Assembly: GCA_002085025.1 (NCBI GenBank)
Contig: MZGK01000006.1
Span: forward strand, 1-53,867
Source of the DNA: Candidatus Omnitrophica bacterium 4484_213
Lineage (GTDB): Bacteria > Omnitrophota > 4484-213
DNA: 53,867 bases
Direction of reading: 5' to 3'
Shown: one piece after another, positions 549-46,683 of the stretch
Numbering within the stretch: position 1 is the first letter of the stretch
How the letters are laid out: the number at the start of each line of letters is the position of its first letter
The notes under the pieces: generated by a model
What the model was told of the DNA's origin: nothing
Seen by the model: only the letters and a program-made list of their open reading frames with translations
Databases searched by the model: none
Translations under genes and position numbers: made by a program

Positions 549-3500
549 ATGAGTGAAATAAGAAATATTTTAGGAATAAGATGCTGGCTGGATAGCGGGC
601 AGTTAAGGATAAAAACAAAGAACAAAATTGGAAGGAAATTCAAGAAGTTCCTCCGCAAAACCATCTGCTTAACAATCATCTTCACCTTCTTGGTTGAAAA
701 CATCTCTTTCTCTAATCCCGATATCTTTTCGGGTAGATGGAGAATAGGAAGGCGGTTGCGTCCGCAACCGCCTTCTTCTTTGGCACAGGAAATAAGCAAA
801 GGAATTCAGGTTGACGAAGAAACTACAAATCAGCTTGGCGTAGGCGGGATTGATTTTACCCACATTGACTTCCATAAGCCAGATTCTGATGCTGACTATC
901 GCCAAGGTTTAGTTGGCAAAAGCGCTACTAAAAAGATTCTCAGTCCATCTTTTTTGAACAGTGTAGCCAATGAGCCTATCTATGACTCTTCGGGTAAACT
1001 TATCTATCTTCCCTCTGAAGAAGCCCCTTCCTATATTTCTCCCTTAAGCAACGAAACCATTAGTGAAAATCCTTTAGAGGAAGATAAAGAACCCTCTTTA
1101 TTAGATAGAATTTTTGCTATTGGTGGAGCAATAAAGGATGCTGCCACCGGGGTTTATAACTATTTAACCGGGGGAGTTTCTTCTCTAATTCATCCCGCCC
1201 CCAAAGAAAGCGAAGAAGACATTCTCCAGACGATAGAAACTCATCGTAAATTGGCTGAGGATTCTCTTACTCCCGAAGATAGAATCTTCTTGGGGTTAGA
1301 CTCTCTTCCTCTTGAAGATGAAACCAAGGAAGCCCCCGAGCAGAAGTTTTTGAGCATTCCTTCTTATGATGTTGAGAGTCCATTGGACACTTTTGAACAA
1401 GGCGGCAAAATAATATCCTACTATCTCAGCGACGATGGAAAGAATCAAATAAAGGTTACTGCTGACTTAGCAAGTCGAACTGTTATTGAGGAGCTTTGCA
1501 ATTTAGAGCGTAGCTCTTTATCTGAGGCGGTTATCCAAACCACTTGTATGAGTAAAAAATCAAAGGAGAGTTTTGATGTAGTGCAGACGCTTAAAAATGG
1601 CGAGAGGGTGATATTTTCCCGAAAAGGGAGCTACGATAATAAGACTGGAGAGTTGAGATTTACTGAGGGGACCTATCTAAATAATCAGGGTAAGGCGATT
1701 GGTTGGAAAGGAGATAAGATAGTTTCTATCAACGACGGCAGTAATCTAATAACCTATGATTATCACTCTCAGGAGAGATTTGATATTGGTCGAGGCTCTG
1801 ATGGAAGTTTGCTTATCTATAAAGATGGAGACTTGATTATTCAGAGCAAAGGAAAGGTGGAAGATTACCAGATTGAAATCGGAGAAGGGGAGATAGAGAT
1901 TATTCGCTATTCCCTCTATAAAGATGGAAAGTTTATCCCTCTAAGTAAGCCAATAAGAGAGAAGATTAAGCCAGGAAAGGGGATAAAAATTACTGCAGAA
2001 GGGATAACCTCTATTTATAATCTTGAAGGGCAGTTTCTGGGGATTGATGTTGGAGGAAAACATTTTACTCCAGAAGAGATTGAGAAAATAAACTATCTAA
2101 AGAAGATTGGTTATCTTGAGAGCGTAAACCCCGTTAGAAAAGAATTTTCTAACGGGGTAAATAAAGAATTAAGATTGTCCTCCTCGGCTGAGCAGAGAAT
2201 TAGCGATTATTATGCCGCTTCCGAACTTTACAATATAGTTCAGCGCCCTGAAGAATTTGGCATTAAAAAAATAAAATACGGGGATTTTGGAGAGGATAGC
2301 GATTCGGGTAATCCTTATCTTGATGCAATATTCGCCGGGATATCAGCAGTTACAGAGGTATTTACTAAAACTGCCGGACCAATAAAATCGTTTGATTTAA
2401 TTATTGATAAAAATAATCTTAATAACTATCAATTTAGCCCCAATCCTGACCTCCAGACGGTAAATATTCCTGGGGCAGATATGGAAGTTTCCAAGACGAG
2501 TATTATTCCTTTTTATGGTCTAATTGCTGGTCCGGAAGGAATATACAACTTAAACTTCCGGGAAGAGGAAGCGCTTAACCGAATGTCTGAGCAATCCTTA
2601 CGCTACGGCACAATCTGCGAGACAATTGCGGTTGGTCCTGATGGAAAAGCAATGAGCCCGATGAATTGGGATTTCTGGACTGAGATGCATAAGAATGAAA
2701 GAATAGGCGACCACTACGGTTATGCTGATTTTTCTACTTATTCAGTTGTTGACGGAGTATTTGATCTGGTTCTGCTTGCCGCTCTTGCCGATAATGTTAT
2801 TGGAATTGAAGGAGTAGATGAAGCGGCAGTCTTAGCCGCCAAGGAGGCTTTTCAAGCCGGCAAGATTAGCACTCGCCAATATCTAAGCAACGGGGTTAAG
2901 CCCTTAATTAAAAAGGGAATCAACCAGAGTTTAAAGGAACTTCCTAAGGATATGCTTCTGGGAGGGTCTAGCTTTGTTGCCACTGATAATGTCATTTCTT
3001 GGACCTTAGACGGTCAGCTTCCTTCTTTAGAGCAAAACATTCGCTCCTTTAAATCCGGCGCCGCCCTTCAAGGTGGATTGAGGTTTGTCGGCGTAGGCGG
3101 AGGTACTACCTTGAAGATTGCCGGGGCTACAAACACAGGGGCAGAACTATCATCAAAGATATCAGGTGTAAGCAGTAGATATGCAAGTAGGCCTTTGACT
3201 TATTATGCTCCCGAAGATGCGGCTAAATTAACCAAGATTAGAGCCGGAAGCAAAGCTGCATTAGCCAAGCCATTTATTCACGCAGATAAAGTAGGTAAAG
3301 AGGTTATCCGGGCCGGTCTGCCTCAAGATGCGACAGCGGCAAAGCTCCTTTCTCCTTCCTTAAAAAAGATTGCCGGGTTTACAGCTATTGGTCCTTCCTT
3401 TACTACTTTGAATATCGGCATTGAATCAGCAATAGAAGGGGAATTGACTTGGCCGGGCAAAAAGGATGGTTTATCTGTTCGTCAGGCATACATAGCAGAT

Positions 3501-6500
3501 GCAGCAAACTTTGCCAAGATGGGTACCTGGCTACCTCAAACAATCGGTATTCTCTCTGTTCCGCATACAGTCGCTAAGGAGGGAGGATTTTTAAATGCTC
3601 TTTCCCGAGAGCATAGTTTGAGCAATTTAGTAAGGTCAATAAAAAACCCGGCTAATGCCATAAAGTCATTAGAAGAAAAAGCAATAAGATTTAATACTGA
3701 AAAAGGGCTAAAGATTTCTTTAGAAAAGGGAATAACTGCTCTCGATTCAGCGGCTTTTATCGCCGGCACACTCTCGGGAGTTCAGCACCTTTCTGAATCT
3801 GGTTTGCAGAAGATTGGTTTTAGTGAGGCTCAAGCCGAGTATTTGTCAAACAAGGCTGCTTTTGCTTCGCTCGTATTTATACCTGCTTATTATAATCCCT
3901 CCTTACTCTCTAAACCCCCTTTACCCACGAAAGCAGGGATAGGTAGCCGAATTAAACAGCGGCTGAGCAATTTGCTTAAAGGAAAAAATACTCCTCAAGG
4001 GCTAAAATTTTCTTTTGATTCCGATAGAATAAAAGAAAACCAGAAATTTGGTAAAGAGATAGGCGACAAATTAAATGAACTTATCGCTCTAAAAAACAGC
4101 GGCAGACAAATCTCCGAAGATATTCTAAACAGCAATGAGATTACCGATAAAATTGCCCTGAGTTTCTTGCAAAAGGCAGAGAAAATGGGCAAGAATTTTG
4201 AGGTGCGTCCCGATGACCAGCTCTCAATGACCTATGTTTTAACCAGGGATATTCTAAGAAGTGTGCAGGAGAGCAAGGATTCTCGGCCCTTTGTTGTTAA
4301 GGTGTTTATGAGCAAGGGGAAATCTGCGGCTTATGCCAGTACGGTTGAATCTGCTTTAGATATCGCCCCGGCAAAGATAGTCATTGTTGCCCCTAACATT
4401 GAAATTATTAACCAGATTCTGTCTGAGCCGGCGATGCAATCAGTAGCCCAAAAATACGGGGTTTGTCTAATTAAAGACCCCCAGAGAGATATTCCTAAAG
4501 GGAACAAGGTTTATCTAATGACCGATTCTACCTTTAAGGACTTTGGCTTGACTATGAAGTATAACCTCGCCAATGGAGAATTCCTCAATGGTATTAACAA
4601 GATTATTGTTGACGAGCCGCAGGTTGTTCTTGCCAATCCGGATAAGGTTGTTAGCTCAAGGGAGGGAGTTTTAAGGCGGCTTTCTCCCCAGATGCAGGAA
4701 AGATTAAGCGAGGAATATTCCTTGCGAGAAAAGATATATTCCAAGGTAGAGGAAAACGCCGATGCTATCCGCACCAAAGGAGAAGAGCCTTTTCTCTGTG
4801 AAGTTCCTGAGGAAATAGCGCGCAGTTTGCATAAATCACCAGAGTTCAGAACTCTGAGTTATTCCTTGCTTAAATATCTCTTAGATAGTGCGGCGACCAT
4901 CTATAAATACGGAGATAAAGCACAGTACTATAAATCAGAAGACGGTAAATTCTTTTCTGTTGCCGGCCCAGGCGGGAGAAATGAACCAGGAACAATCTTT
5001 GGCGAGCGGGAGATGTCTATCTTTTTAGGGATAAAAGAGAAATTGGGCAGAGAAAAGGCAATGGAGGATTTTGTCGCCAGTAGTAATCCCTACCGCATCA
5101 GTTTTACGGAAATAATCAGTCGCTTAGGAAAAAATAAATTTGTCGGGGGCAGCGGGACTACAGATAGCATTGATGGCATTCTCAAGGAAATGGGTTTTGA
5201 TGTCCTGGAATTTAGCCGAGAACCGATATTCAAAACAGGACCTACTACGAAGATTATCTTTGCCGAAAAAGATTTACCGACAAGCTTGGGAGAGGTTATT
5301 GAGAAAGCGTTTCGTGAGGGTTATAACAAGGTTGTAATTACGGATAAAAGGGGTCAGATGCTCGAGCGCTATGAACGAGCATTAAAATCTGATGAAGGTA
5401 TTTCTCAAGATACAGAGATAATTTTAATTGAGGGAAGAGAGAAATGGGAAGAAGGGATGGAGTATGCGGCAAGAAGGTGTCAGGAGTATCCTCAGGAAAA
5501 GACCATCGTTCTTGCCCAGGAGCTAGAGACAGGGCTCAATCTTCTGGCTACTTCTAAGAAGGGTGATTACAAAGCGGTAGTTATCAAAACAGATATTTCA
5601 TCCAAGGATATCTTTAAGCAGTTTGCTGCTCGGGTAAAAACTAAAGAGATGCCCGAAATAGGAGGAAGAGTAGAGGGAAAGGTTTATTTTATGATTGACC
5701 CCATAGAGGTAGAGAATCTGGGTTATAACGGTAAGAATGTAGGTTTAAGTGGTCTCACCGATGCCGATAAACTCGCTCTATCTAAAGCGAAAGACCTTGC
5801 TGAAAAGCAAGAGATTATTCTGAATATTGCTGAACGTATTTCCCATCTGGGGAGATTTAGCAAAGGCATAGATATGTTTAGAAAACCTACAAGCCAGATT
5901 CAGCGTGAGACAATAGAAAGACATCTTTCCGAGGTATTAGAAGAGGAACTCGCGGCAATCAAAAAAAATCCCTCTTTAATAACTCATAATAGAATAAAAA
6001 ACATAATTTCTTTGTTTGATAATGAAGACGATGAGGTACGTCAACTTGCCCTGGGGAATCTCTTTGAGATGTTGAGAAGAAGGGATGAAAAAAATTCTTT
6101 GTTGGCAAATCCTGAGGAGGTAGAGGAAATAATCAGAGAGTTTGCGCTCAAGGATGAGGGTTATTATGACCGCGTAAAGGGAATAAAGAGAGAGCCGCAT
6201 TTTGTGGGAACCCCCTTTGAGGTAATAAGAGAGATAGCCAGAGAGGATATTGACAAGCTTACCTTCCCGGTTGTAAAAGAGGTGCTCAAGGTATTTAAGA
6301 AAGATGCTCGTTCATTTATAAAAGAGGCATTTGTTGATGTTTTTGGCAACCTGCCCCCCAGAAAGACAATCGACGATTGGGTTGAGGCGATGGTAGAGCG
6401 AGGCTATAGCCAGGAGGATGTTCTTCGTGGTTTGCGAGGCGAGCGATATCTATATGAAGATGAACTCAATGCTATTGCTAAAGGTGAATCTATTATTAGT

Positions 6501-7670
6501 TCTGATAGTAAGGAATTTTCAGATTGGCTAAAAGAAACATCCTTGGCGACTGGTAAATCTGAAGAGGCAATTCTCGGCGAGATAGAAGAGGCGAAAAAAG
6601 ATTATGCCGAGAGAGAGAAGAGAAAAAAAGAGAAACTTGTTTATCAATTGGGAGAAAATTTAGGCAAATCTTTAAAGCATTTTGGGGAGCAGATTGGAGG
6701 GTCTCCCATAGGGAAGATCCTCTCTCTGGCTATCCCTTTGGGTATAGGTGTTCTCTATCTTTCCTCTCCCCTTAGCGGACTTATAGCCGGAGTTGCTGCC
6801 CAAGATAATCCCCTGGATATGCATAGAGATGATACGAAATTAGCCATAGACAGGGAAGATTTAACATCAACGCTTGCTTCTCCAAAACAAGAAGTTCTAC
6901 TTACCTTGCCCGAAGTAGAGAAGGTAGATATAAATAGCTATACGCCACACGCTACGCGTTATACACCTGATGGAAAAGATTCTGGAGGTGAATTTAGCGA
7001 ACAGATAGCCACTCCCCGCATCATTGGAGAAGACCTTTCTCCCTGGGACGATGATTATGTTGATAGGGAGACAGAGACTGGCTACCTTAATATTTATCTT
7101 GAGGTTGATAATTGGGCTGATTATATTGAACTCTGGCAGGCAGATAATCCCGAGTTTGAAGATACCCAGAGAAAAATAATCCCTGCCGACGAAGACCATC
7201 GCCGAAATATAGAGCTCAAACTCAAAGATTTAACCGAAGACCAGTATGTCAAGTTTGTTGCCTATCGCGCCGGAGCCGCGCCCAGTGAAGAGAGCGAGAT
7301 TATCCGCGTTAAGGTTGTTAAAGAAGATAACCACGGTAATCCAATAGAGCCAGTAGAAGAGCCGATAGGAAAATTAGACACTAAAGATAGTCATTTAGGA
7401 GAATTAACCGTAGAGTTAGAACCCGGCGAGGAGCCCAATATAGTAACTACCTATAAAACTCTTATTGATGCCAAAGGTGAGCCAAAGACAACCAAGATAA
7501 AAGAGGATATTACTGATTATCCCCGTTTCTTTGAGGTGATGATTGTAGATACTGAAGTTGGTGGGATATGGAGAAGAAAAAGGACCTGCCCGATGGTAAG
7601 TATGAGGTCTTTGCCCGCGCCCATTATTATAAAGATTCATCCACCGGCAAACTGCCAAGCGATTGGGTGA
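549..7670 (+). CDS. Giant membrane-anchored protein, upstream reading frame (2,373 codons) with a SecA-like NBD1-PPXD-NBD2 core
   Basis: Uninterrupted 7.1-kb ORF. The N-terminus has a basic stretch then a hydrophobic segment (RKTICLTIIFTFLVENISF). A second hydrophobic span is GKILSLAIPLGIGVLYLSSPLSGLIAGVAA (nt ~6712-6803). nt ~4290-5545 is colinear by eye with the genuine SecA at 38509: SKGKS~GEGKT, KIVIVAPNIEII~[33 protein letters not shown]~[26 protein letters not shown]~AIVDEVD, YYKSEDGKFFSVAGPGGRNEPG~[29 protein letters not shown]~[22 protein letters not shown]~[14 protein letters not shown]. Confidence 0.85.
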   Translation: MSEIRNILGIRCWLDSGQLRIKTKNKIGRKFKKFLRKTICLTIIFTFLVENISFSNPDIFSGRWRIGRRLRPQPPSSLAQEISKGIQVDEETTNQLGVGGIDFTHIDFHKPDSDADYRQGLVGKSATKKILSPSFLNSVANEPIYDSSGKLIYLPSEEAPSYISPLSNETISENPLEEDKEPSLLDRIFAIGGAIKDAATGVYNYLTGGVSSLIHPAPKESEEDILQTIETHRKLAEDSLTPEDRIFLGLDSLPLEDETKEAPEQKFLSIPSYDVESPLDTFEQGGKIISYYLSDDGKNQIKVTADLASRTVIEELCNLERSSLSEAVIQTTCMSKKSKESFDVVQTLKNGERVIFSRKGSYDNKTGELRFTEGTYLNNQGKAIGWKGDKIVSINDGSNLITYDYHSQERFDIGRGSDGSLLIYKDGDLIIQSKGKVEDYQIEIGEGEIEIIRYSLYKDGKFIPLSKPIREKIKPGKGIKITAEGITSIYNLEGQFLGIDVGGKHFTPEEIEKINYLKKIGYLESVNPVRKEFSNGVNKELRLSSSAEQRISDYYAASELYNIVQRPEEFGIKKIKYGDFGEDSDSGNPYLDAIFAGISAVTEVFTKTAGPIKSFDLIIDKNNLNNYQFSPNPDLQTVNIPGADMEVSKTSIIPFYGLIAGPEGIYNLNFREEEALNRMSEQSLRYGTICETIAVGPDGKAMSPMNWDFWTEMHKNERIGDHYGYADFSTYSVVDGVFDLVLLAALADNVIGIEGVDEAAVLAAKEAFQAGKISTRQYLSNGVKPLIKKGINQSLKELPKDMLLGGSSFVATDNVISWTLDGQLPSLEQNIRSFKSGAALQGGLRFVGVGGGTTLKIAGATNTGAELSSKISGVSSRYASRPLTYYAPEDAAKLTKIRAGSKAALAKPFIHADKVGKEVIRAGLPQDATAAKLLSPSLKKIAGFTAIGPSFTTLNIGIESAIEGELTWPGKKDGLSVRQAYIADAANFAKMGTWLPQTIGILSVPHTVAKEGGFLNALSREHSLSNLVRSIKNPANAIKSLEEKAIRFNTEKGLKISLEKGITALDSAAFIAGTLSGVQHLSESGLQKIGFSEAQAEYLSNKAAFASLVFIPAYYNPSLLSKPPLPTKAGIGSRIKQRLSNLLKGKNTPQGLKFSFDSDRIKENQKFGKEIGDKLNELIALKNSGRQISEDILNSNEITDKIALSFLQKAEKMGKNFEVRPDDQLSMTYVLTRDILRSVQESKDSRPFVVKVFMSKGKSAAYASTVESALDIAPAKIVIVAPNIEIINQILSEPAMQSVAQKYGVCLIKDPQRDIPKGNKVYLMTDSTFKDFGLTMKYNLANGEFLNGINKIIVDEPQVVLANPDKVVSSREGVLRRLSPQMQERLSEEYSLREKIYSKVEENADAIRTKGEEPFLCEVPEEIARSLHKSPEFRTLSYSLLKYLLDSAATIYKYGDKAQYYKSEDGKFFSVAGPGGRNEPGTIFGEREMSIFLGIKEKLGREKAMEDFVASSNPYRISFTEIISRLGKNKFVGGSGTTDSIDGILKEMGFDVLEFSREPIFKTGPTTKIIFAEKDLPTSLGEVIEKAFREGYNKVVITDKRGQMLERYERALKSDEGISQDTEIILIEGREKWEEGMEYAARRCQEYPQEKTIVLAQELETGLNLLATSKKGDYKAVVIKTDISSKDIFKQFAARVKTKEMPEIGGRVEGKVYFMIDPIEVENLGYNGKNVGLSGLTDADKLALSKAKDLAEKQEIILNIAERISHLGRFSKGIDMFRKPTSQIQRETIERHLSEVLEEELAAIKKNPSLITHNRIKNIISLFDNEDDEVRQLALGNLFEMLRRRDEKNSLLANPEEVEEIIREFALKDEGYYDRVKGIKREPHFVGTPFEVIREIAREDIDKLTFPVVKEVLKVFKKDARSFIKEAFVDVFGNLPPRKTIDDWVEAMVERGYSQEDVLRGLRGERYLYEDELNAIAKGESIISSDSKEFSDWLKETSLATGKSEEAILGEIEEAKKDYAEREKRKKEKLVYQLGENLGKSLKHFGEQIGGSPIGKILSLAIPLGIGVLYLSSPLSGLIAGVAAQDNPLDMHRDDTKLAIDREDLTSTLASPKQEVLLTLPEVEKVDINSYTPHATRYTPDGKDSGGEFSEQIATPRIIGEDLSPWDDDYVDRETETGYLNIYLEVDNWADYIELWQADNPEFEDTQRKIIPADEDHRRNIELKLKDLTEDQYVKFVAYRAGAAPSEESEIIRVKVVKEDNHGNPIEPVEEPIGKLDTKDSHLGELTVELEPGEEPNIVTTYKTLIDAKGEPKTTKIKEDITDYPRFFEVMIVDTEVGGIWRRKRTCPMVSMRSLPAPIIIKIHPPANCQAIG
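2128..2158. repeat. Minimal palindromic element (termini only) inside the giant gene
   Basis: Perfect 14-bp inverted repeat ACCCCGTTAGAAAA (2128-2141) / TTTTCTAACGGGGT (2145-2158) with a 3-nt loop. It is read in frame as NPVRKEFSNGV. Confidence 0.8.
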
Positions 7671-10600: not shown

Positions 10601-11089
10601 AAAGAGTTTGGGGGGATAAATAACTATGTAGAAGAATTCGTTTATCCAGGAGATAAAATTAAAGGAACGGTCTATGGAATGCATTCTGCCAAGGGTAAGT
10701 TTGTCGGCGAGAGGACTTATGATAACTTGATTAATGAAGGAAAGTTGATACATAGCATAAATATTTTAGATTTAGGTAGAGAGCAGAGAGTTGAAGTTAA
10801 GTATCAGTCCGACGGCAGTATTTTGCATTACCGAGATTATAAAGGAGTTAATCTTCCCTTATTAGGATATACAGATGAGTTATTTAGAAATACAAACATA
10901 GATTTTGTGGACGAATTTTATTGGCAGCACAATAAACTTTATACCCTTGACTTAAATAGCAATAAAAAAGAAACATTCCACTTTTTAAGAAATGATTATT
11001 ATCTATCAGAAATTTCCCGAGTTGATTATCAACTGAACGATAATTCGCTAAGAATAAGCGCTGAGTTCTTATTGGTGTATTTGCTTTGA
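7568..11089 (+). CDS. Giant protein, downstream reading frame (1,173 codons): Fn3-like segment then beta-rich repeats; probably the C-terminal continuation of 549..7670
   Basis: Overlaps the upstream frame by 103 nt in the -1 frame. The first residues (KKDLPDGKYEVFARAHYYKDSSTGKLPSDWVSLGEVEI) look like the end of an Ig/Fn3-like domain. GWGVLSWSLPPGAKGVVLEVAE looks like the start of another. Later ~40-aa repeats are visible (IGEREEITLAWEYNGP... / LGQAEEVKLAYRYGP... / TGEREDAVLSHFSGLP...). Confidence 0.85.
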   Translation: MEKKKDLPDGKYEVFARAHYYKDSSTGKLPSDWVSLGEVEIERDDRLRYFAPPPEMDIQETKNGWGVLSWSLPPGAKGVVLEVAEKSRDLSSHPNADNGKDTQRYFIPRDFTSLLTNQEGVYHIATVYEKPDPDSQVTGKKILTYSQWGGLHSEHNYFQKREGEETISIEAITESIPQRKGIIIDNNQAKIFIKDKQDELKFLADYELDDNFEIKTTREEPLDKGPVHIKHFTDYGENEFDTEQIGNNIYHYEKGLKMSDGTPFWTEVTSAIDKDKVIKTAEAIIDKDSGEIIGRRVKDLISGITEIQDYYGGEWFTTEKTVANGETFNYKYKDYVGRRFLIWDNEDGIEKEHSYEFYPLEKETEVEEITKQDWPGGPEQKGWKSNEKALLKVKTRTISFNDGRPDVVKHYDIDENLLIVENSDETISIYDLFNFPGLNQPTMIADAQTGEIRQKINYELDEMNVITKITKEHLFEGQTEMIEVDPVTNWKTITTKDNDGVIWISTPSTEDSQYIETKVNLCSGTEEKLFFNYYGGHIIGGAEFDWNGDEIKHWEIDGNKKIVEYPRIGEREEITLAWEYNGPATEGHCFDKLGEKSNWEVSESGYTKTKNFLRLGQAEEVKLAYRYGPEIKGARSDDLGEIFSWKIGVGQDGKWHNLKEFVRTGEREDAVLSHFSGLPEKIDFIGSDGEIKRATKFRDDSDDWLSQEIEGKKKPLAITEKFDGRSKETVYGYLSSSRIGPKIVETEFDNNGDLFSVLNLQGDGRWLIKEEGEDKGKYYGKKYFVQEGKNEDGEYREYEEIVFASQDGTKEKITHYKWSGEEQEFVEIFSKEAVDENGNWLIDENTGKHYTQIDFANGRKQFNVHPWIGSEVNEFSKMLAPDRQTTLWDEQTYFDEKDRKWYQDKNIYDRGKLIKEEKNILLWHNGPLSDGTIVEHRYDGDVYFDVKRDYIENYSKMTETIRREDNGDRDAIKWERILGNWEKIEIDYSDGTGEKNYFDDNGIKIKKEFSRKEFGGINNYVEEFVYPGDKIKGTVYGMHSAKGKFVGERTYDNLINEGKLIHSINILDLGREQRVEVKYQSDGSILHYRDYKGVNLPLLGYTDELFRNTNIDFVDEFYWQHNKLYTLDLNSNKKETFHFLRNDYYLSEISRVDYQLNDNSLRISAEFLLVYLL

Positions 11090-12380: not shown

Positions 12381-12394
12381 TCAACTTGATTTTA

Positions 12395-12444
12395 TCCGAC
12401 GCTTCCTCGGGGGAATTCGCCATAGGCGAATTATTTAACAGGGT
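12395..12444. repeat. Intergenic copy (3' part) of the palindromic element family
   Basis: Ends with ATTTAACAGGGT (12433-12444), identical to the right terminus of the nusB copy. It shares tccgacgctNcctcgggg with the hydA copy and has the inner hairpin AATTCGCC-ata-GGCGAATT (12414-12432). No clean left terminus was found. Confidence 0.6.
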
Positions 12445-12472
12445 TGACCAAACATTCTTTTCCTGCTAAACT
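12444..12472 (+). promoter_or_regulatory. Candidate sigma70-type promoter for cysK
   Basis: TTGACC (12444-12449), 17-nt spacer, TGcTAAACT extended -10 (TAAACT at 12467-12472). The -35 box abuts or overlaps the end of the palindromic element. Confidence 0.4.
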
Positions 12473-14458: not shown

Positions 14459-15619
14459 ATGAATTTAAAAAGAGTTGTTGTGGCAATGAGTGGAGGAGTA
14501 GATTCTTCGGTTGCTGCCGCTCTACTTAAAGACAAGGGCTTTGAAGTCATTGGTATCACTATGCAAGTCTGGGAATGTTCCAGGAATTGGAGCGGTTATG
14601 CAAAGAGGGTAGCTAATAGATTAGGAATACCCCACTATGTATTAGATGTCCGAGATATTTTTAAACAAAAAGTAATTGCCAACTTTTGTGAAGAATATAG
14701 AGAGGGCCGAACGCCTAACCCTTGCATTAGATGCAATGAATACATAAAGTTTGAGACCTTGCTTAAAAAAGCAAAGGAGTTAGACGCAGATTATATCGCT
14801 ACAGGTCATTATGCAAGGATAGAGAGGGCAAAGAGCAAAGGGCAAAAAGCAAAGGGCAAAGAAGAAGTCCGATGCTTGCTTAAAAGAGGGATTGATGCTA
14901 AAAAAGATCAATCCTATGTTTTATACACGATGATCCAGGAGCAATTAAAGCATACCCTCTTGCCCTTAGGAAACTTGACTAAAGACCGGGTGAGAGAAAT
15001 TGCTCGGGAAAAGGATTTGCCGGCAACAAGGCCAGAATCTCAGGAAATATGTTTTATCCCCGATAATAACTATGGAGAGTTTCTCAGAAAATATCTCCCT
15101 GAGGCAGCAGAACCTGGCCCTATTCTAAATAAAGAGGGTAGAGTTATCGGCGAGCATCAAGGAATAATTTTTTATACTGTCGGCCAACGCAAAAGAATAG
15201 GCCTATCTAACAAAGAGCCTCTATATGTAATCGCAGTTAATAAAGAAAGCAATACAGTTGTTGTCGGAAAAAAAGAAGAGGGCTATGCTGATGAGTTAAT
15301 TGCTAATAATCTAAATTTTATAGATATGAAGAAGTTAACCTCGCTTCTGGGAGCAGAGGCGAGGTTAAAGACTCCTATTAAGGCAGAGGCAAAAATAAGA
15401 TATCTTCATCAACCCTCAGCGGTAACTGTTACTCCGTTGAGCGAAGCTTGGGTTCATCCTGCCAAATCCCTGCCGAGGTGGGGACCGGCAAAGCCGCTAT
15501 TAAGCAGGGTAAGAGTGAAGTTTAAGCAGCCGCAGTGGGCAATTACTCCTGGGCAGGCAGTGGTATTTTACGATAAGGAGGAGGTTATCGGGGGAGGAAC
15601 GATAGAAAGATGCCTCTAA
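14459..15619 (+). CDS. mnmA: tRNA 2-thiouridine(34) synthase MnmA, carrying two repeat-derived insertions
   Basis: PP-loop VVVAMSGGVDSSVAA, NPCIRCN, TGHYAR, DQSYVL, ITPGQAVVFYD...GGGTIE. Confidence 0.93.
   Translation: MNLKRVVVAMSGGVDSSVAAALLKDKGFEVIGITMQVWECSRNWSGYAKRVANRLGIPHYVLDVRDIFKQKVIANFCEEYREGRTPNPCIRCNEYIKFETLLKKAKELDADYIATGHYARIERAKSKGQKAKGKEEVRCLLKRGIDAKKDQSYVLYTMIQEQLKHTLLPLGNLTKDRVREIAREKDLPATRPESQEICFIPDNNYGEFLRKYLPEAAEPGPILNKEGRVIGEHQGIIFYTVGQRKRIGLSNKEPLYVIAVNKESNTVVVGKKEEGYADELIANNLNFIDMKKLTSLLGAEARLKTPIKAEAKIRYLHQPSAVTVTPLSEAWVHPAKSLPRWGPAKPLLSRVRVKFKQPQWAITPGQAVVFYDKEEVIGGGTIERCL
14826..14860. repeat. Heptanucleotide tandem repeat (RRGCAAA x5) inside mnmA
   Basis: gggcaaa gagcaaa gggcaaa aagcaaa gggcaaa, translated as (R)AKSKGQKAKGK. 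It lies between the HYAR and DQSY motifs. Confidence 0.8.
15451..15510. repeat. Palindromic element copy inside mnmA (nusB-type subfamily)
   Basis: ggttcaTCCTGCCAAAT...ATTAAGCAGGGTaag aligns with the nusB copy ggttcaCCCTGTTAAAT...ATTTAACAGGGTaaa. It is read in frame as VHPAKSLPRWGPAKPLLSRV. Confidence 0.7.
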
Positions 15620-18034: not shown

Positions 18035-19815
18035 TTACTTTAACTATTGATAATCAAAAAGTAGAGGTTCCTGAAGAGACAACTATCTTTGAAGCCGCCA
18101 AAAAGGTGGATATTAACATCCCCCATCTTTGCTATCACGAGGCATTATCTATTTATGGGGCTTGCCGGGTTTGCGTGGTAGAGATAGAAAAAAGACCGCG
18201 CTTGGAGCCTTCTTGCGCTACCTTGGTAGAGGAGGGAATGGTTGTCTGGACAAATACGGCTCGTGTCCGGCGGGCACGCAGGATGCTCGTGGAATTGCTT
18301 TTAGCCAATCACCCTGAGGATTGCTTTACCTGCGAAAGGAATCAGGCCTGCGAATTAAGAAAACTCGCTTATGATTTAGGAATAAGAGAATTAAGATTTA
18401 AAAAAGGGAGGAAATATCATTACGAGCAGGATATTTCTTCTCCGGCTATAATAAGAGACCCCAATAAATGCATTCAGTGTGGCCGGTGCATAAGGGTGTG
18501 TTCGGAAATACAGTCAGTGGGGGTAATTGATTTTGTCAATCGTGGTGGGAAAACCCAGGTTTTAACTTTTTTCAATAAAGGGTTAAACAATGTAGAATGC
18601 ACTACCTGTGGCCAGTGCATCCTTGCCTGTCCTACAGGCGCATTGCGCGAGAAGACTGTAGTGGACGAGGTCTGGGAGGCAATCTCTGACCCTAAAAAAT
18701 TTGTTGTGGTTCAGGCCGCCCCAGCAGTAAGAGCGGCTATCGGAGAGGAATTTGCTATGCCTGCAGGGAGCTTGGTTACCGGTAAAATGGCTGCCGCTTT
18801 GCGAAGGTTAGGTTTTGATAAGGTATTTGATACCCAATTCGCTGCAGACCTGACGATTATGGAAGAAGCACATGAATTGATAGAAAGGATAGAAAATAAG
18901 GGTGTGCTTCCGATTATTACCTCTTGCTCTCCCGGCTGGATAAAATATATTGAACATTTCTTTCCCAAGTGCTTGGAGCATATTTCCAGTTGCAAATCTC
19001 CCCAGCAGATGTTTGGGGCGATAGCCAAAACATACTACGCTAAGAAGATAGGGGTTAAGCCCAAAGATATATATGTGGTTTCTATTATGCCTTGCACCGC
19101 AAAGAAGTTCGAGGCTCAGCGCCCGGAAATGAGAGATTCAGGTGTCCAGGATGTAGATGCGGTGCTGACTACAAGAGAGGCAGCCCGAATGATTAAAGAG
19201 GCAGGAGTTGATTTTATTAATTTAGAAGATGAAGATTTTGATGAGCCATTAGGTATTTCAACAGGGGCGGCCGTAATATTCGGAACTACCGGCGGAGTAA
19301 TGGAGGCGGCCCTGCGAACAGCGTATGAGGTAGTGGCAGGGAAGACTTTAGAACGAGTAGAATTTGAACAGGTGCGCGGGATGCAAGGAATAAAGCAGGC
19401 AGAAATAAACTTAGAGGGATTAAACCCTATTAGAAGCAACTCCGACGCTACCTCGGGGTGTCCGGCGGGAACTCCTAACGGGGTAAATTTAAAAGTGGCA
19501 GTTGCCCATGGTTTATCTAATGCCCGAATTCTATTAGAAGAAATTCAAAAAGGAATTTCACCTTATCACTTTATAGAAATTATGGCTTGTCCAGGAGGTT
19601 GCTTGGGCGGAGGGGGTCAACCTATGCCTACCAATGAAGAGATAAGGAAGAAAAGGGCAGCCAGTTTATATTTAGAGGATAGAAACAAACCGATAAGGAA
19701 ATCTCACCAAAATCCGGCCATTATTGCCCTGTATGAAGAATTTTTAGGTAAACCCTTGAGCGAAAAGTCTCGTCGTCTTTTACATACAACCTATACTAAA
19801 AGAGAAAGATATTGA
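18031..19815 (+). CDS. hydA: [FeFe]-hydrogenase catalytic subunit
   Basis: N-terminal 2Fe-2S and 4Fe-4S motifs (CRVCVVE, HPEDCFTCERNQACELR, CIQCGRCIRVC, CTTCGQCILACP). H-cluster motifs TSCSPGW, MPCTAKKFE, EIMACPGGCLGGGGQP. The ATG at 18031 overlaps the hydB TGA; the track start at 18022 is a TTG. Confidence 0.93.
   Translation: MITLTIDNQKVEVPEETTIFEAAKKVDINIPHLCYHEALSIYGACRVCVVEIEKRPRLEPSCATLVEEGMVVWTNTARVRRARRMLVELLLANHPEDCFTCERNQACELRKLAYDLGIRELRFKKGRKYHYEQDISSPAIIRDPNKCIQCGRCIRVCSEIQSVGVIDFVNRGGKTQVLTFFNKGLNNVECTTCGQCILACPTGALREKTVVDEVWEAISDPKKFVVVQAAPAVRAAIGEEFAMPAGSLVTGKMAAALRRLGFDKVFDTQFAADLTIMEEAHELIERIENKGVLPIITSCSPGWIKYIEHFFPKCLEHISSCKSPQQMFGAIAKTYYAKKIGVKPKDIYVVSIMPCTAKKFEAQRPEMRDSGVQDVDAVLTTREAARMIKEAGVDFINLEDEDFDEPLGISTGAAVIFGTTGGVMEAALRTAYEVVAGKTLERVEFEQVRGMQGIKQAEINLEGLNPIRSNSDATSGCPAGTPNGVNLKVAVAHGLSNARILLEEIQKGISPYHFIEIMACPGGCLGGGGQPMPTNEEIRKKRAASLYLEDRNKPIRKSHQNPAIIALYEEFLGKPLSEKSRRLLHTTYTKRERY
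19424..19484. repeat. Palindromic element copy inside hydA
   Basis: ACCCTATTAGAAG (19424-19436) ... ACTCCTAACGGGGT (19471-19484). Read in frame as NPIRSNSDATSGCPAGTPNGV between the GIKQAEI and VAVAHG segments. Confidence 0.75.
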
Positions 19816-24036: not shown

Positions 24037-25374
24037 ATGAGAAGGACGCCGAAAGGCCTTCGTCTGCACATAGCCATCTTCGGCCGAAGAAATGTAGGCA
24101 AATCCTCTATACTTAACGCATTGACGCGACAGGAAGTTTCAATTGTTTCAGAGATTGCTGGTACAACTACCGACCCGGTGGAGAAGGCAATGGAATTACT
24201 ACCTATCGGGCCGGTTTTATTTATTGATACCGCAGGTCTGGATGATATAGGAGCCTTGGGTGAAAAAAGAGTTGCAAAAACCTATAAGGTTTTTGAGCGT
24301 GCTGACATTATTCTTTTAGTTAGTCAGGCAAATGTATGGGGAGAATATGAGGAAGAGATTTTAGAAGAAGCAAGAAGGAGAAAAACCCCCATTTTGGTTA
24401 TTTTAAATAAAACAGACCTCTTTAAACCGGAGCAGGATTTAGGCCCCGTTAGAAGTAATCCGCCTCTGGCGGATGCCCCCAATGGGCATCGGGGGACTTC
24501 TAACGGGGCAAAAGCGAAATTAAATAAAGAAAAAATTCCTTACGTTGAAACCTGTGCGTTAAATCAGGGTTGGGAAACAGCAGCCAAAATAAAAAATGAA
24601 CTTATCAAGTTGCTTCCCAGCGACTGGATAACCCCTTGTCCGATTATTGCTGATTTAATTGAAGCCGATGACCTGATTATTCTGGTTATCCCCATTGATA
24701 AAGAAGCGCCAAAAGGAAGAATTATCCTGCCTCAGCAACAGACATTGAGGGAGATATTGGATAAAAAAGCAACAGCTTTAGTGGTAAATGAGAGGAATTT
24801 AGGCAAGGCAATTTCCAATTTAAAACAACCTCCAAAAATTGTGGTTACTGATTCTCAGGTCTTTGAACAGGTTTTTGCCTCTACGCCTTTAGATATTCCT
24901 GTGACCAGTTTTTCTATGCTTTTTGCTCGCTGTAAAGGCGATTTAAAGCAGTTAACTGAAGGGGCAAAACGAATAGATGAGTTAAATCCGGGTGATAAAA
25001 TTTTGATTGCCGAGGCCTGCACCCACCATCCCATAGGTGACGACATCGGACGGGCGAAAATCCCCAATTGGATTTCTGAGAGAGTGGGGAGCAAAATAGG
25101 CCCCGCACCAGATTCCCAGTGCAGGGTAAATTTTGATATTTATTCCGGACACGATTTCCCCTCTAATTTAAAACAGTATAAATTAATTGTCCATTGCGGC
25201 GCGTGTATGTTAAACCGGAAAGAGGTTTTAAATAGAATCTATGAAGCAAAGAGTCAAGGTGTTCCCATAACCAACTATGGCGTGGCTATAGCCTATCTTC
25301 ATAATAAACTAGAGAGGGCTTTAGAGCCTTTTGAAAAAAAGAAAAGGGATGAAAATGAAAAAAGATTGTCCTAA
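24037..25374 (+). CDS. hydF: [FeFe]-hydrogenase maturase GTPase HydF
   Basis: G1 [10 protein letters not shown]3 DTAGLDD, G4 NKTD. C-terminal cluster motif CTHHP ... HCGACM. Confidence 0.9.
24443..24509. repeat. Palindromic element copy inside hydF (full-length, nested hairpins)
   Basis: Perfect 14-bp termini GCCCCGTTAGAAGT (24443-24456) / ACTTCTAACGGGGC (24496-24509). Inner hairpins are TCCGCC-tct-GGCGGA (24459-24473) and TGCCC-ccaat-GGGCA (24474-24488). Read as [23 protein letters not shown]. Confidence 0.85.
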
Positions 25375-28212: not shown

Positions 28213-28295
28213 AATTAGAACTAAGTCTTTCTTGGATAGTTGGTAATCTTTCTGATCAAGACCTATTCAACAAGACCAGAAAAGAGACCGGAGAG

Positions 28296-34033: not shown

Positions 34034-34435
34034 ATGGGTTTTAAACGGGGTGAAATGCTCTCGAAGATAGAATTCGGAAAATTGGGAGAGGAGCTCGCAG
34101 TCGCTTTTTTGAAAAGAGAGGGATGCAGGATAATTGAGCAGAATTACAAGTGCCTGTTTGGAGAGATAGATATTATTGCTAGGTTTAAAAAGACCTTGAT
34201 TTTTGCCGAGGTAAAGACGCGGCATCCTTCTCATTTGGGTCTCCCTCAAGAAGCGGTGGATAAAAGAAAGCAGGAGCAAATTGCCAAAACCGCTCTTCAT
34301 TATCTTGCTACCCATCAACTTTTAAAAAAACCTGCCCGTTTTGATGTTCTATCTATTTTAGTCAATCCTGATGGTTCAAAGGAGGTTGAATGGCTAAAGG
34401 ATGCCTTTCCTTTGCCTGAAAGATATAGCTACTGA
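34034..34435 (+). CDS. yraN: YraN family (UPF0102) endonuclease
   Basis: GEELAVAFLKREGCRIIEQNYKCLFGEIDIIA ... FAEVKTR ... ARFDVL. The start is uncertain (34034 or 34055). Confidence 0.85.
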   Translation: MGFKRGEMLSKIEFGKLGEELAVAFLKREGCRIIEQNYKCLFGEIDIIARFKKTLIFAEVKTRHPSHLGLPQEAVDKRKQEQIAKTALHYLATHQLLKKPARFDVLSILVNPDGSKEVEWLKDAFPLPERYSY

Positions 34436-35373: not shown

Positions 35374-35957
35374 AATACGGATTAAGAACGCCCCACGCCC
35401 CACGCCCCACGCCCCACGCTAAAAAAGACTTGCTGAAAATGTATGAAGAGACGAGGGGAGAGGGGTTTGGCAAGGAGGTAAAACGGCGGATTATCTTAGG
35501 AACCTATGTCTTGAGCAGAGGGTATTATGACCAATATTATCTGAAAGCAGCAAAGGTTCGGGAACTCATCAGAAGGGATTTTGAAGAGGCATTTAAAAGA
35601 TGTGATTTGATTGTTACCCCTACTTCGCCCACTCCAGCTTGGAAAATAGGCGAAAAAATAGACGACCCTCTGAAGATGTATCTCTCGGATATCTTTACTA
35701 TCCCGGCGAATTTAGCTGGCATTCCGGCAATCTCTATCCCCTGTGGTTTTACCCCGTTAGAGAACTCTACGAGACAAAGTAAGAGCAGTGTTCGCACTAT
35801 TAAAGAGCGAGCGAAGGATTCTCTAAAGGGGTTTACAAATGAACTCCCTGTAGGTCTGCAGATTTTGGGAAAGCCATTTAAGGAAGAAAAAATTTTGCAA
35901 GCCGCTTATGCTTATGAACAAGACACAGAGTGGCATCTGCAGAAACCAAAATTATAG
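35274..35957 (+). CDS. gatA: Glu-tRNA(Gln) amidotransferase subunit A, C-terminal fragment
   Basis: [92 protein letters not shown]. The frame differs from the N-terminal fragment. Confidence 0.88.
35388..35418. repeat. Heptanucleotide tandem repeat (CCCCACG x4) inside gatA
   Basis: acg ccccacg ccccacg ccccacg ccccacg, translated as [11 protein letters not shown]. Confidence 0.85.
35751..35832. repeat. Palindromic element copy inside gatA
   Basis: ACCCCGTTAGAGAA (35751-35764) / TTCTCTAAAGGGGT (35819-35832), 13 of 14 complementary. The inner AGTG-ttcg-CACT hairpin is present. Read as [28 protein letters not shown] between PCG and LPVGLQI. Confidence 0.75.
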
Positions 35958-38516: not shown

Positions 38517-40491
38517 CTTTATTCTCAGAAAAATAATCGGCACTCAGAATCAGCGGGCGTTGAGAAAAATGGCTCCTGTTGTAGAAAAGATAGAAGGTTT
38601 GGATCCGTCTATCTCTGCTCTCACCGATGACGAACTGCAGGCAAAGACAGAGGAGTTTAGAGAGCGTCTTAATAAAGAAGAGACTCTGGATGATCTTCTT
38701 CCGGAGGCGTTTGCTGTTGTCCGCGAGGCGGGCAAGCGGACGATAAATATGCGCCATTTTCCTGTTCAACTCATCGGTGGGATTGTTTTACATCAGGGGA
38801 AGATTGCCGAGATGGCCACTGGAGAAGGGAAGACATTGGTGGCTACCTTAGCGGCTTACTTAAATGCTCTGAGCGGTAAAGGGGTGCACATTGTTACCGT
38901 AAATGACTATTTAGCCCGCAGAGACCGCCAGTGGATGGGGCCAATCTATGAATTTCTCGGGCTTAGTGTAGGGGTAATCCAGCAAGGGATGCCCCCCCAG
39001 GAACGACGTGCCGCCTACAACTGCGATGTTACCTATGGCACTAACAACGAATTTGGTTTTGATTATCTGCGAGACAATATGGTTGTTTCTATAGAAGATA
39101 AGGTGCAGAGAGAGCTACATTACGCGATTGTTGATGAGGTGGATAGCATTCTCATCGATGAGGCCCGTACCCCCCTAATTATCTCCGGCCCGAGCGAGGA
39201 ATCAACAGATAAATATTATAAGGTAGATAGAATAATCTCACTCCTTAAGAAAGGCGAGAGGGATGAGGTGAGCAAAGAGGAAAGAGGGGATTATATTGTC
39301 GATGAAAAACACAAGACCTCTTATCTAACTGAGCAAGGGGAGATTAAGGCGGCTAAACTCTTGGGGCTAAAGGATATGCATAGTTTGACAACAATGGAAT
39401 ATAAACACCATGTCAATCAGGCATTGCGTGCGCACAACAATTATAAACGTGATGTTGATTATATGCTCAAAGACAATCAGGTGGTTATTGTCGATGAGTT
39501 CACTGGACGATTAATGCCCGGGAGAAGGTGGTCAGATGGGTTGCACCAAGCAATTGAGGCAAAAGAAAGGGTAAAGATTGAAAGAGAGAACCAGACCTTA
39601 GCTACAATTACCTTTCAGAATTATTTTCGGATGTATGAGAAACTTGCTGGAATGACCGGCACTGCGGCTACCGAGGCATCAGAGTTTTTGCAGATTTATA
39701 AGTTGGATGTAGCGGTTATTCCCACCAATAAGCCATTGAACAGAACAAATTATCCCGATGTAATCTATAAAACCGAGCGGGAGAAGTTTAATGCCGTAGT
39801 GGAAGAAATTGAGGAGCTCCACAAGCAGGGACGGCCAGTATTAGTGGGCACGGTCTCTATTGAGAAATCCGAGCGGTTGAGCCAGTTGTTAAAAAGAAAG
39901 AATATTATGCACTCGGTGTTAAATGCTAAATATCACGAGCGTGAGGCAGAAATAGTTGCCTTAGCCGGACAGAGGAATGCAGTGACCATTGCTACGAATA
40001 TGGCTGGAAGAGGCACAGATATTGTTTTAGGAGAGGGAGTAGCGGAGTTAGGGGGGCTACATATTATCGGCACCGAGAGACACGAAGCCCGCCGAATTGA
40101 CAATCAACTGCGCGGGCGTGCTGGCCGGCAGGGCGACCCCGGTTCATCGCGTTTTTATCTTTCTTTGGAAGATGACCTCTTACGTCTATTTGGCTCGGAA
40201 AGGATAATGGGGATGATGAAGCGTTTGGGAATGCCGGAGGGGCAGGCAATCGAGCATAAACTGATTACCCGGGCCATTACTACTGCCCAGAAGAGAGTAG
40301 AGGCGATGAATTTTGATATTCGCAAGCAACTTTTGGACTACGATAATGTGATGAATAAACAACGCGAGGTGATTTATAAACAACGCGAGGTGATTTTAAA
40401 AGGAGAGAATTTAGAGGAGGAGATAAACAGGATGATTGAATCAGTTTTGGAAAGATGGTTAGAAACTTATCTGCCCTTGAAAGATGGTTAA
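38509..40491 (+). CDS. secA: Preprotein translocase ATPase SecA, N-terminal 660 codons (frame broken near 40450-40490)
   Basis: [97 protein letters not shown]. Confidence 0.92.
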
Positions 40492-45396: not shown

Positions 45397-45617
45397 TCCC
45401 CCGATTTAACGGGTAAATTCATAGCTTTGATCCGTGTCCTTCGGGTGGCCCCGAAATTTCGAAACTTCGGTTCTCGCCCTGCACCAAAGCGGTGCAGGGC
45501 TTGCTTCGCGAGGAAGAAAAGGAAAAAATAAAAGCGAAATGGACTTCGTCCATTTCTATCCTTCGCTTCGCTCAGGCTCTCGCCTTCGGCGAGGAAGAAA
45601 AGGAGGTGCGAGAAAAA
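45397..45617. repeat. Repeat and hairpin-rich ribH leader
   Basis: Solo element end GATTTAACGGGTaaat (45403-45417). Hairpins CCCTGCAC-n7-GTGCAGGG (45477-45499) and GAAATGGAC-ttc-GTCCATTTC (45536-45556). Exact 16-nt direct repeat GCGAGGAAGAAAAGGA (45508-45523 and 45589-45604). Confidence 0.75.
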
Positions 45618-46081: not shown

Positions 46082-46212
46082 CGAGTCCTTACCCTACACC
46101 AATTTCTCTTTTGATTAAGCATCTTGGAAAATTGGCGGAGGTTCAATTCGCAAACGGAGTTCGTCCCACAATTTACGTTGCTTACATTCCGTAAATTGTC
46201 TGCTCATTGAAA

Positions 46213-46683
46213 ATGCGCAAGAGAACAAGAGCAAGAGAAATAGCCCTCCAGATTCTTTATCTGATTGATATCAGTGAAGATGATTATCAGGTTGCTTGGG
46301 AGAAATTTTGGGCTGTAGAGTCTCCCGAGGTTTCTGAGGAGGTTCACCCTGTTAAATCCGCCGATGGCGGAGCAGCGAAGCCGCTATTTAACAGGGTAAA
46401 GGAATTTTCACAGCAATTAGTAAAAGGGACGATAGAGAATCTTAAATCGCTCGATGATGTAATTGAGAGCTTCGCCGAGAACTGGCGACTCTCGCGGATG
46501 GCAGTGGTTGAGCGGAATATTCTGCGGCTTGCTACCTATGAACTCCTTTTTTGCCCTGAGATTCCTCCGATTGTCTCCATAAACGAGGCAATTGATCTGG
46601 CAAAGAAATACAGCGGTCTGGAAGCCGGTAAATTCGTGAACGGGATACTGGATAAGATAAGAAAGTCAAAAATTAAGAACTAA
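46213..46683 (+). CDS. nusB: Transcription antitermination factor NusB, containing a palindromic insertion
   Basis: RTRAREIALQILY, W.L.RMAVVERNILRLATYEL, P..V.INEAIDLAKKY, KFVNGILDK. Confidence 0.92.
   Translation: MRKRTRAREIALQILYLIDISEDDYQVAWEKFWAVESPEVSEEVHPVKSADGGAAKPLFNRVKEFSQQLVKGTIENLKSLDDVIESFAENWRLSRMAVVERNILRLATYELLFCPEIPPIVSINEAIDLAKKYSGLEAGKFVNGILDKIRKSKIKN
46346..46397. repeat. Palindromic element copy inside nusB
   Basis: Perfect 12-bp termini ACCCTGTTAAAT (46346-46357) / ATTTAACAGGGT (46386-46397). Inner hairpin TCCGCC-gat-GGCGGA (46357-46371). Read as HPVKSADGGAAKPLFNRV. Confidence 0.85.

Follow-up and report, generated by a model that had tools for sequence, protein, structure and literature searches.

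Very small palindromic elements lying in frame within genes of an Omnitrophota bacterium and other uncultivated bacteria

To our knowledge, selfish DNA lying in frame within bacterial genes has so far been essentially a Rickettsia curiosity. The subject here is a short repeat of similar behaviour in an Omnitrophota genome, found in a stretch of 53.9 kb (the window: positions 1 to 53,867 of contig MZGK01000006.1 from Candidatus Omnitrophica bacterium 4484_213) that is part of a 99-kb metagenome scaffold. Its copies are bounded by inverted ends, ACCCYGTTARA and TYTAACRGGGT. Rickettsia palindromic elements (RPEs; Ogata et al. 2000, 2002) are about 100 to 150 bp long, fall into ten sequence families and are confined to Rickettsia (summarised in PMC10969869). 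Like RPEs, the elements described here are palindromic and non-coding, recur in the reading frame of unrelated housekeeping genes, where they are read through as additional peptide at positions that tolerate it, and have intergenic copies as well. Unlike RPEs, they are 28 to 143 nt long, share only their 14-bp ends, are associated with a 4-bp duplication and occur in metagenome-assembled genomes (MAGs) labelled with about a dozen phyla. The first-pass annotation of the window had called them RPE-like; this holds for their behaviour, but their length and host do not support placing them among the RPE families.

[quoted passage not shown] Of these generic features, TIRs are present here as the 14-bp arms, and a duplication relative to an empty site is present at nusB and gatA but not in the copies called class II below. 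Classical MITEs, however, are lineage-specific, with copies alike over their full length and derived from one insertion sequence (IS). The present family differs from described MITEs: only the 14-bp ends are conserved, interiors vary even within one genome, the same ends cross about a dozen phylum labels, and no parent is visible (neither the window nor 953 kb around elements yielded an autonomous IS that shares these ends).

REP (repetitive extragenic palindromic) and REPIN sequences with their REP-associated tyrosine transposase (RAYT) are likewise very short, high-copy hairpins without a longer TIR-bounded relative, mobilised in trans by the product of a single-copy gene (PMC3116915, PMC3733652, PMC2817692). 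REPs, however, are extragenic and species-specific, carry a GTAG/CGTC head and make no duplication, whereas the present elements have ACCCYGTTARA ends, are often genic and have a duplication; membership of the REP/RAYT group is contradicted on all three counts of ends, location and duplication. Tiny mobile hairpins and double hairpins are also known from the mitochondria of yeast and Allomyces (GC clusters and double-hairpin elements), where they too lie in frame in protein genes. Repetitive hairpins of sponge mitochondria are comparable as tiny mobile hairpins invading compact genomes (PMC2800124). All these mitochondrial elements differ in belonging to eukaryote organelles, in their unrelated sequences and in having a different duplication or none. 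In integron attC sites, the 5' arm carries RYYYAAC and the 3' arm GTTRRRY; here the polarity is reversed (GTTARA on the 5' arm, TYTAAC on the 3' arm), and identity with attC was rejected.

Repeated ends, open frames and empty alleles

The motif ACCCYGTTARA (up to one mismatch) occurs 13 times in the window, against 2.99 ± 1.82 in shuffled sequence (maximum 8; none of 100 shuffles reached 13). Half-site density with one mismatch came out barely above a rough expectation and was set aside as uninformative. Facing arm pairs lie at 2128-2158, 19424-19484, 24443-24509, 35751-35832 and 46346-46397, the first and third with 14/14 complementary arms. A position-weight matrix (PWM) trained on 244 half-sites from other genomes and then run on the window recovered exactly these five pairs, together with strong lone right ends at 12447 and 34054, while shuffled sequence gave 0 to 3 weak halves. 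The shared inverted termini noticed in the first-pass annotation are a real repeat, far more frequent than chance both in the window and in a 596-Gb collection of genomes. Within the window there are five complete in-frame elements and a decayed sixth; a truncated copy and one solo end, or two, lie between genes. Inner modules seen earlier were confirmed by reading the sequence: TCCGCC-nnn-GGCGGA is common to the hydF and nusB copies and TCCGACGCTNCCTCGGGG to the hydA and an intergenic copy.

Six copies lie in coding sequence (a giant ORF, mnmA, hydA, hydF, gatA and nusB). The host frame is open through all of them, with zero stops, and five are read in the phase CCC GTT AGA, as had been claimed, with gatA (ACC CCG TTA) the exception. 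From the first A to the last T they measure 31, 55, 61, 67, 82 and 52 nt, respectively; every one of these lengths is 3n+1, which with the flanking duplication gives a net insertion of 3n. The third phase, which had been described as never used, does read TAG in elements with C-type ends (ACCCCGTTAGA) and TAA in those with T-type ends (ACCCTGTTAAAT), but elsewhere on the scaffold that TAG serves as a gene's stop. About 12 kb to the right of the window, a 33-nt mini element (L128 12583-12619) lies at the 3' end of a methionine-synthase-like gene, and the TAG in its left arm (12589-12591) is the stop codon of that gene. The "forbidden" phase is usable to terminate a gene.

Comparison with relatives revealed both empty and filled sites. 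The nearest relative, the Omnitrophota MAG AUK068 with matching JGI contigs (L124-L127), is syntenic and about 95-96% identical in DNA. In hydF, 69 nt of the window are absent from it (empty GGATTTAAAAGCG vs GGATTTAG[GCCCC..GGGGC]AAAAGCG in the window). A relative about 80% identical (L131) has an empty gatA site, TGTGGT-TTTA-CAAAC, where the window has TTTA-CCCC...GGGG-TTTA, and an empty nusB site, GAAG-TAAA-GAAA; across 16.7 kb of synteny in which the window has two elements, L131 has zero. The nusB site is filled in L132 by a C-type copy, TAAA-CCCC..GGGG-TAAA, with an interior resembling that of the window hydF copy. In the window and in L133 it is filled at the same codon by T-type copies with unrelated interiors and the flanks TTCA...TAAA. 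It is clear that the copies are inserted DNA, missing from close relatives at three sites. Target-site duplication, a matter raised by the first-pass annotation, amounts to a clean 4 bp, TAAA at nusB and TTTA at gatA.

The hydA, mnmA and gatA copies (the last at L124 16295-16382) are common to the window and L124, with substitutions. L124 also has an extra 31-nt copy at the end of trmD that is missing from the window, where the trmD-rplS spacer is too diverged to show a clean empty site. In old copies, palindromy decays ahead of divergence in the host gene. Between the window and L124, the mnmA copy is 65% identical (flank 92%) and the hydA copy 90% (flanks 94-97%), while the gatA copy shows no excess divergence over its flanks. 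Pairing in these shared copies is lost without compensation.

The segments had been described as insertions at short loops rather than ancestral protein, and alignment with solved homologues bears this out. HydA aligns with 8a6t HydA1 on both sides of an exact gap of 20-21 residues, at 8a6t residue 460. The extra segment of HydF lies in the linker after the GTPase domain, those of MnmA and NusB correspond to a gap in the C-terminal loop and a clean gap, respectively, and in GatA the dipeptide GF is duplicated on either side of 26-28 extra residues. In an AlphaFold model of NusB, residues 47-57 are coil between helices 40-46 and 58-77, with the predicted local distance difference test score (pLDDT) below 50 at 49-56. 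Among the 120 closest database HydF homologues, the signature peptide was found in the window protein only, and HydF has 422 aa in three homologues (P0002-P0004) vs 445 aa in the window. Listed HydA homologues of up to 85% identity are mostly 571-579 aa long vs 597 in the window (the closest have 576, too few to include the insert), and some have 587-595 aa, with extra residues that were not located. NusB typically has 138 aa in Omnitrophota vs 156-158 here. From their open frames, the segments appear to be translated as extra loops.

Other accounts, in which the segments are protein loops of ancestral or convergent origin, the motif arose by chance or assembly produced the copies, can practically be discounted; all that speaks for them is the first impression of translated segments. 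Ancestral loops are contradicted by the homologues that lack the segments and by intergenic copies bearing the same ends, and chance is excluded by the motif statistics. As to artefact, the HydF protein with its insertion was found on contigs assembled independently from three samples, and the hydA, mnmA and gatA copies recur in a different assembly.

The family in other genomes

A collection of 596 Gb, holding one genome per GTDB species, was scanned with the pattern ACCCYGTTARA-N30-60-TYTAACRGGGT. At least 120 loci matched, where chance would give about 17 in the whole collection (our own estimate for even base composition). Among the matches listed, from which all counts of family members below are drawn (n = 118, 120 or 123 copies), every locus is a MAG or single-cell genome and about half are Patescibacteria by record titles and depositor taxon labels. 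The other labels are Omnitrophota, Planctomycetota (Pirellulales, Phycisphaerae, Sedimentisphaerales, Brocadiaceae), Cloacimonadota, Bacteroidota, Nitrospirota, Nitrospinota, Desulfobacteria/'Deltaproteobacteria', Gammaproteobacteria, KSB1, WOR-3/Stahlbacteria, Calditrichaceae and one Clostridia. Only two matches came from viral contigs, giving no sign of a phage vehicle. The literature, including a search on the literal end sequences, yielded no description of these elements.

The ends are sharply 14 bp, consisting of ACCCYGTTARA and three covarying bases: Watson-Crick pairing falls from 113/120 at position 12 to 88/120, 72/120 and 28/120 at positions 13, 14 and 15. Interiors are hypervariable, unrelated between most copies and different even within one genome. 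They contain 66 perfect inner hairpins vs 24 expected, mostly with loops of 3-4 nt such as GAA and AAA. T-type copies are mostly 52-58 nt long with two GC hairpins; over the whole family most copies measure 52-82 nt, with clusters at 52, 55, 58, 61, 64, 67 and 82 nt. In four Patescibacteria loci (L018, L032, L060 and L070), C-type copies of 67-73 nt have an extra GCCCGCC/GGCGGGC stem around two hairpins, and this nested group suggests conserved structured subfamilies within the hypervariable family.

Lengths of 3n+1 are found in 68 of the 123 copies overall and in 25 of the 26 that lie inside long ORFs, the screen for which demanded an open frame through the element and so could find only stop-free copies. 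Peptides are as in the window, and the host genes identified are holB, gatA, secA, proB, rsmA (ksgA), folD, pyrD-like, rplR, lpxD and leuD. Copies in long ORFs are almost always 3n in net length, stop-free and placed at gaps in homologues. Phase-0 copies (TPLE...LTGF) were also found in type IV pilin-like genes of three unrelated genomes, exactly at the G|FTLIE prepilin cleavage motif (L013 3025-3106 and 6120-6201, an in-frame tandem pair; L092 2235; L105 6931). The codons of this motif, GGN TTT ACN, contain a preferred target, G-TTTA-C.

The same frame data bear on whether the elements act as RNA, with a Y-shaped structure that is spliced out, bypassed by the ribosome or regulatory, so that the peptides are never made. 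Young copies in the window do adopt an outer stem enclosing two hairpins and fold far better than their shuffles (z of -4.5 to -6.4). Inner loops resembling UUCG, UACG or GAAA are also present in some copies. No fold excess is seen, in contrast, in the intergenic copy or the decayed ones of mnmA and hydA, and the uncompensated loss of pairing in shared old copies and the abrupt end of pairing at 14 bp also speak against a role as RNA. Rfam covariance models gave no match overlapping any element in the window (E ≤ 1) and nothing on the elements in 18 loci at the gathering score. Conserving frame in 25/26 genic copies, all stop-free, would be pointless for a segment that is removed or skipped; as the screen was limited to stop-free copies, the excess of 3n+1 lengths is the stronger of these two arguments. 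An RNA-level element is therefore considered very improbable.

Flanking sequence and movement of the elements

T is found at -3 in 103/118 copies and A at +3 in 102/118. In 51 of the 118 (class I), direct TNNA repeats stand on both sides; these are almost entirely C-type copies with GTTAGA[A/G] ends. The middle NN is the same on both sides in 56 copies (14.4 expected; maximum 27 in 1000 shuffles). Reverse-complement duplications are about equally frequent (TTTA 15 and TAAA 11; TCAA 6 and TTGA 4; TTCA 5 and TGAA 4), a balance that insertion in both orientations would produce. Taken with the empty alleles of nusB and gatA, in which it is single, the TNNA of class I is a target-site duplication. 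Its length is 4 bp for an element that ends in CCC and 2 bp for one that includes the A and T, and the data fit both.

Class II consists of 25 copies whose flanks read TTCA...TAAA or the reverse complement of this; GTTARAT ends go with these flanks, and nearly all T-type copies belong here. The nusB and mnmA copies of the window are of this class too. The nusB alleles show that the TTCA is brought in by the element, and in all eight class II copies inside genes it is 5' on the sense strand. A Tn916-like 'coupling sequence' and a piggyBac 'donor flap' were both rejected as models for class II, since the TAAA..TGAA pairs they predict were not observed. In the copies listed, the order of inner hairpins showed no correlation with flank asymmetry. 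Class II fits no single model tried.

The copies probably belong to a selfish DNA element that is not autonomous, a MITE-like transposon of very small size moved in trans by cut-and-paste. Such an element would consist of two 14-bp TIRs around 3-115 bp of variable, often hairpin-forming filler that encodes nothing. A transposase encoded elsewhere would recognise the ends and make a staggered 4-bp cut at TNNA. Insertion into genes would be random, there being little but coding sequence in these genomes, and selection would purge copies that shift the frame, that present TAG or TAA in the third phase or that land in structured parts of proteins. The survivors would be translated as a surface loop of 10-28 residues (xPVR...SNGV, HPVK...FNRV or TPLE...LTGF) and then drift.

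Several observations weigh against this transposon. No moving enzyme came to light: Pfam searches of 20 window ORFs found no transposase, the 148 ORFs lying closest to elements in other genomes match 202 Pfam families, among which transposases are not enriched, and phmmer searches of 1342 ORFs (loci and window) with the ISEcp1 transposase gave no hit at E ≤ 10, nor did an approximate IS608 TnpA query give any against ORFs of the loci. No plausible longer element is formed by ends more than 160 nt apart in the 953 kb around elements. Exact half-sites in the loci all have a partner within about 100 nt, and 15 lone strong halves are locus ends or remnants. Since neither a candidate enzyme nor a longer element was found in the window and loci, the elements would depend on a gene elsewhere. 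The 31-bp copy is too short for synapsis of two double-stranded ends by a transposase, unless it shrank after insertion, and interiors that differ even within one genome are unlike a classical MITE burst. For 11-nt ends to be identical over about a dozen phyla, either horizontal transfer must be frequent or a protein acting in trans must be very conserved. The class II flanks, which are not a duplication, are found on about one copy in four, and translation of the segments is deduced from conservation of frame.

Some of these difficulties are lessened if the folded hairpin itself is the substrate of a single-strand HUH (Y1) transposase, as for IS200/IS605 or REP/RAYT, with insertion 3' of a target tetranucleotide and the element's own tetranucleotide at its 3' end. 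The elements are hairpins down to 31 nt, they have no longer TIR-bounded relatives in the loci, and the short loops of their many inner hairpins are typical of stable DNA hairpins. Read on one strand, class II becomes TTTA|CCC...GGG-TGAA, a target followed by the element's own end tetranucleotide; the empty nusB allele has TTTA on that strand, and the eight genic copies are oriented alike. HUH enzymes, however, make no duplication, whereas class I has a true, variable TNNA duplication, confirmed by two empty alleles, and its NN varies within one genome (for example, TCTA and TCAA in JAZDOX01). The GTAG/CGTC head of REPs is missing on direct reading (cf. PMC3733652). No Y1 transposase was found in the 953 kb, a weak test in view of the approximate query. 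Movement by an HUH enzyme is considered improbable.

Alternatively, a site-specific recombinase (serine or tyrosine, Xer-like) could recombine the joined ends of a circle with weak look-alike sites. The junction ..TYTAACRGGG-TNNA-CCCYGTTARA.. would form a two-arm core, in which TNNA or NN is the crossover rather than a repair duplication. The target G-T-N-N-A-C/T weakly mimics joined GGGT-NN-ACCC (G at -4 in 27/51). C-type copies with intact flanks on this contig are flanked by TAAA/TTTA only, as fits a carried crossover, and a conserved host enzyme would account for identical ends across phyla and for the missing transposase. The T-type arm shares TGTTAAAT with what we take to be the XerD arm of E. 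coli dif, perhaps by coincidence. On the other hand, NN differs among copies within other single genomes, and the arms of the target site are conserved for one base at most. Just two integrase-family ORFs occur among the 148 neighbours, no excess over housekeeping XerC/D, and the Xer-exploiting elements that we know of integrate only at dif. A recombinase has little chance of being the agent. Either this or the HUH mechanism does better than a cut-and-paste transposon with class II, small size and the missing parent, and worse with the variable duplication.

For a trans-acting cut-and-paste transposase, the CCC termini with a 4-bp T..A duplication point to a DDE/DDD enzyme of the IS1380/piggyBac superfamily, a tentative guess that may well be wrong. 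IS1380 elements have CC ends and a 4-5 bp duplication, and ISEcp1, a bacterial member, makes a 5-bp duplication. The ends of piggyBac are TTAA|CCCTAGAAAG, and its excision is seamless by way of 4-nt overhangs (PMC7351741). Variant duplications TAAA and TCAA and CCC-type TIR starts occur in the piggyBac group, of which IS1380 is the prokaryotic outgroup (PMC10813416). The present elements are similar in that 5'-CCC termini abut a 4-bp T..A duplication (TNNA|CCCYGTTAGAAA, i.e. TNNA|CCCY...RGGG|TNNA). They differ in that the target is relaxed to TNNA and no DDE/DDD transposase was found in the loci and window. The ISEcp1 ends CCTAGATTCTACGT, read in an E. coli plasmid, resemble them weakly, a further point against this reading. 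The resemblance to piggyBac/IS1380 is taken as a lead and not as proof of a relationship. If the guess were right, excision could be seamless and insertions in genes reversible.

A broader and rather unlikely proposal is that all copies belong to one ancient, still active hairpin family with nearly invariant ends across much of the uncultivated bacterial world (candidate phyla radiation, Omnitrophota, Planctomycetota and others), adapted to life inside genes and moved by an unrecognised piggyBac-like enzyme that can excise seamlessly or by a conserved host recombinase. Pointers to such adaptation are the length classes of 3n+1, the frames free of stops and the fact that one nusB codon was used repeatedly. 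Such a family would be a major and reversible source of lineage-specific loop insertions in the proteins of these organisms.

The data suggest that in-frame selfish DNA is widespread in the least-known bacterial phyla, where it reaches secA, gatA, folD, ksgA, ribosomal protein L18 and an [FeFe]-hydrogenase with its maturase. It offers a concrete and testable source for unexplained extra loops in CPR (candidate phyla radiation) and Omnitrophota proteins, and it cautions those who annotate genes or predict structures against taking such segments, which are parasitic filler, for functional motifs. With their 14 bp, the ends can serve as a marker by which to follow horizontal transfer from one phylum to another, and the enzyme, if found, could provide compact cut-and-paste at a 4-bp target.

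Copies and neighbouring features in the window

Table 1. Positions of element copies and remnants in the window
Feature	Positions	Strand	Details
C-type mini element, giant ORF (549-7670)	2125..2161		TAAA, CCCCGTTAGAAAAGAATTTTCTAACGGGG, TAAA; 14-bp perfect arms, 3-nt loop
Intergenic T-type copy	12383..12447		Upstream of PALP/cysK-like gene (12583-13533)
Decayed T-type copy, mnmA (14459-15619)	15453..15513	+	Flanks TTCA..TAAG; peptide HPAKSLPRWGPAKPLLSRV
C-type copy, hydA (18022-19815)	19421..19487		Flanks TAAA..TAAA; peptide NPIRSNSDATSGCPAGTPNGV
C-type copy, hydF (24037-25374)	24440..24512		Flanks TAGG..CAAA; G..C end variants
Possible solo right end	34038..34054		GTTTTAAACGGGGTGAA, between rnhB and UPF0102 gene
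C-type copy, gatA	35748..35835		82 nt; flanks TTTA..TTTA; other permitted phase
Doubtful solo-end remnant	45403..45417		GATTTAACGGGTAAA, one G short, upstream of ribH; below strong-half PWM threshold
T-type copy, nusB (46207-46683)	46343..46400	+	Flanks TTCA..TAAA; peptide HPVKSADGGAAKPLFNRV

The mini element of the giant ORF encodes the peptide NPVRKEFSNGV, has PWM scores of 23.7 and 25.8 and folds as RNA at -20.7 kcal/mol (z -5.8). The hydF copy has its arms around two inner hairpins (-45.8 kcal/mol, z -6.4) and a 23-residue peptide. The gatA copy encodes 28 residues (fold z -4.5), and the nusB copy has 12-bp perfect arms around two inner hairpins (fold z -4.6). The mnmA copy, which had been placed at 15451-15510, does exist and is in the common phase, but its first A lies 5 nt later, at 15456. 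Its orthologue in the relative (L124 34-91) is well preserved and is 92% identical to the window nusB copy.

In the intergenic copy, given earlier as 12395-12444, the right end (ATTTAACAGGGT; right-half PWM 18.9) and two inner hairpins are solid, but the left arm (12383-12394) is decayed, with 6/12 consensus matches, and the whole element has a fold z of -0.17. The right end at 34038..34054 may be a remnant; it is conserved in L124 (14578), where it is closer to consensus (PWM 24.4 vs 16.5 in the window). The sequence at 45403-45417, which had been listed as an intergenic end, is at best the remnant of a solo end. Beyond the window, the same scaffold has three further copies, one of them in a TonB gene.

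A second kind of hairpin repeat has a unit of 44 nt (ACAGGTATTATTAGAGGCAACTYCTCTATCGCCTCTATAAGGAT); it occurs singly at 396-442, upstream of the giant gene, and as a four-copy tandem array between hydG and hydE in the relative (L124 8751-8940). A sub-threshold match to the c-di-GMP-I-GGC riboswitch (47.3 bits vs gathering 59, E 4e-8, full model length) lies at 25622-25720 on the plus strand, upstream of a 603-aa ORF (25817-27628) that has no Pfam domain. The 3 kb or so that holds this ORF and subtilase fragments (25817-28900) has no counterpart in L124, where a 307-aa ORF and trmD come more directly after hydF.

Relative to L124 15746-15838, gatA lacks 92 nt of native coding sequence, out of frame, at about 35272, and secA (40455-40491) and an S8 peptidase/subtilase gene (27655-28898) are each broken into two ORFs. 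Errors of assembly, or else decay of genes in this population, would account for these features. At 549-11089, a 2373-aa ORF overlaps by about 100 nt a 1173-aa ORF (7568-11089) in which Pfam finds no domain, and the two may be one frameshifted giant gene of the kind reported for Omnitrophota.

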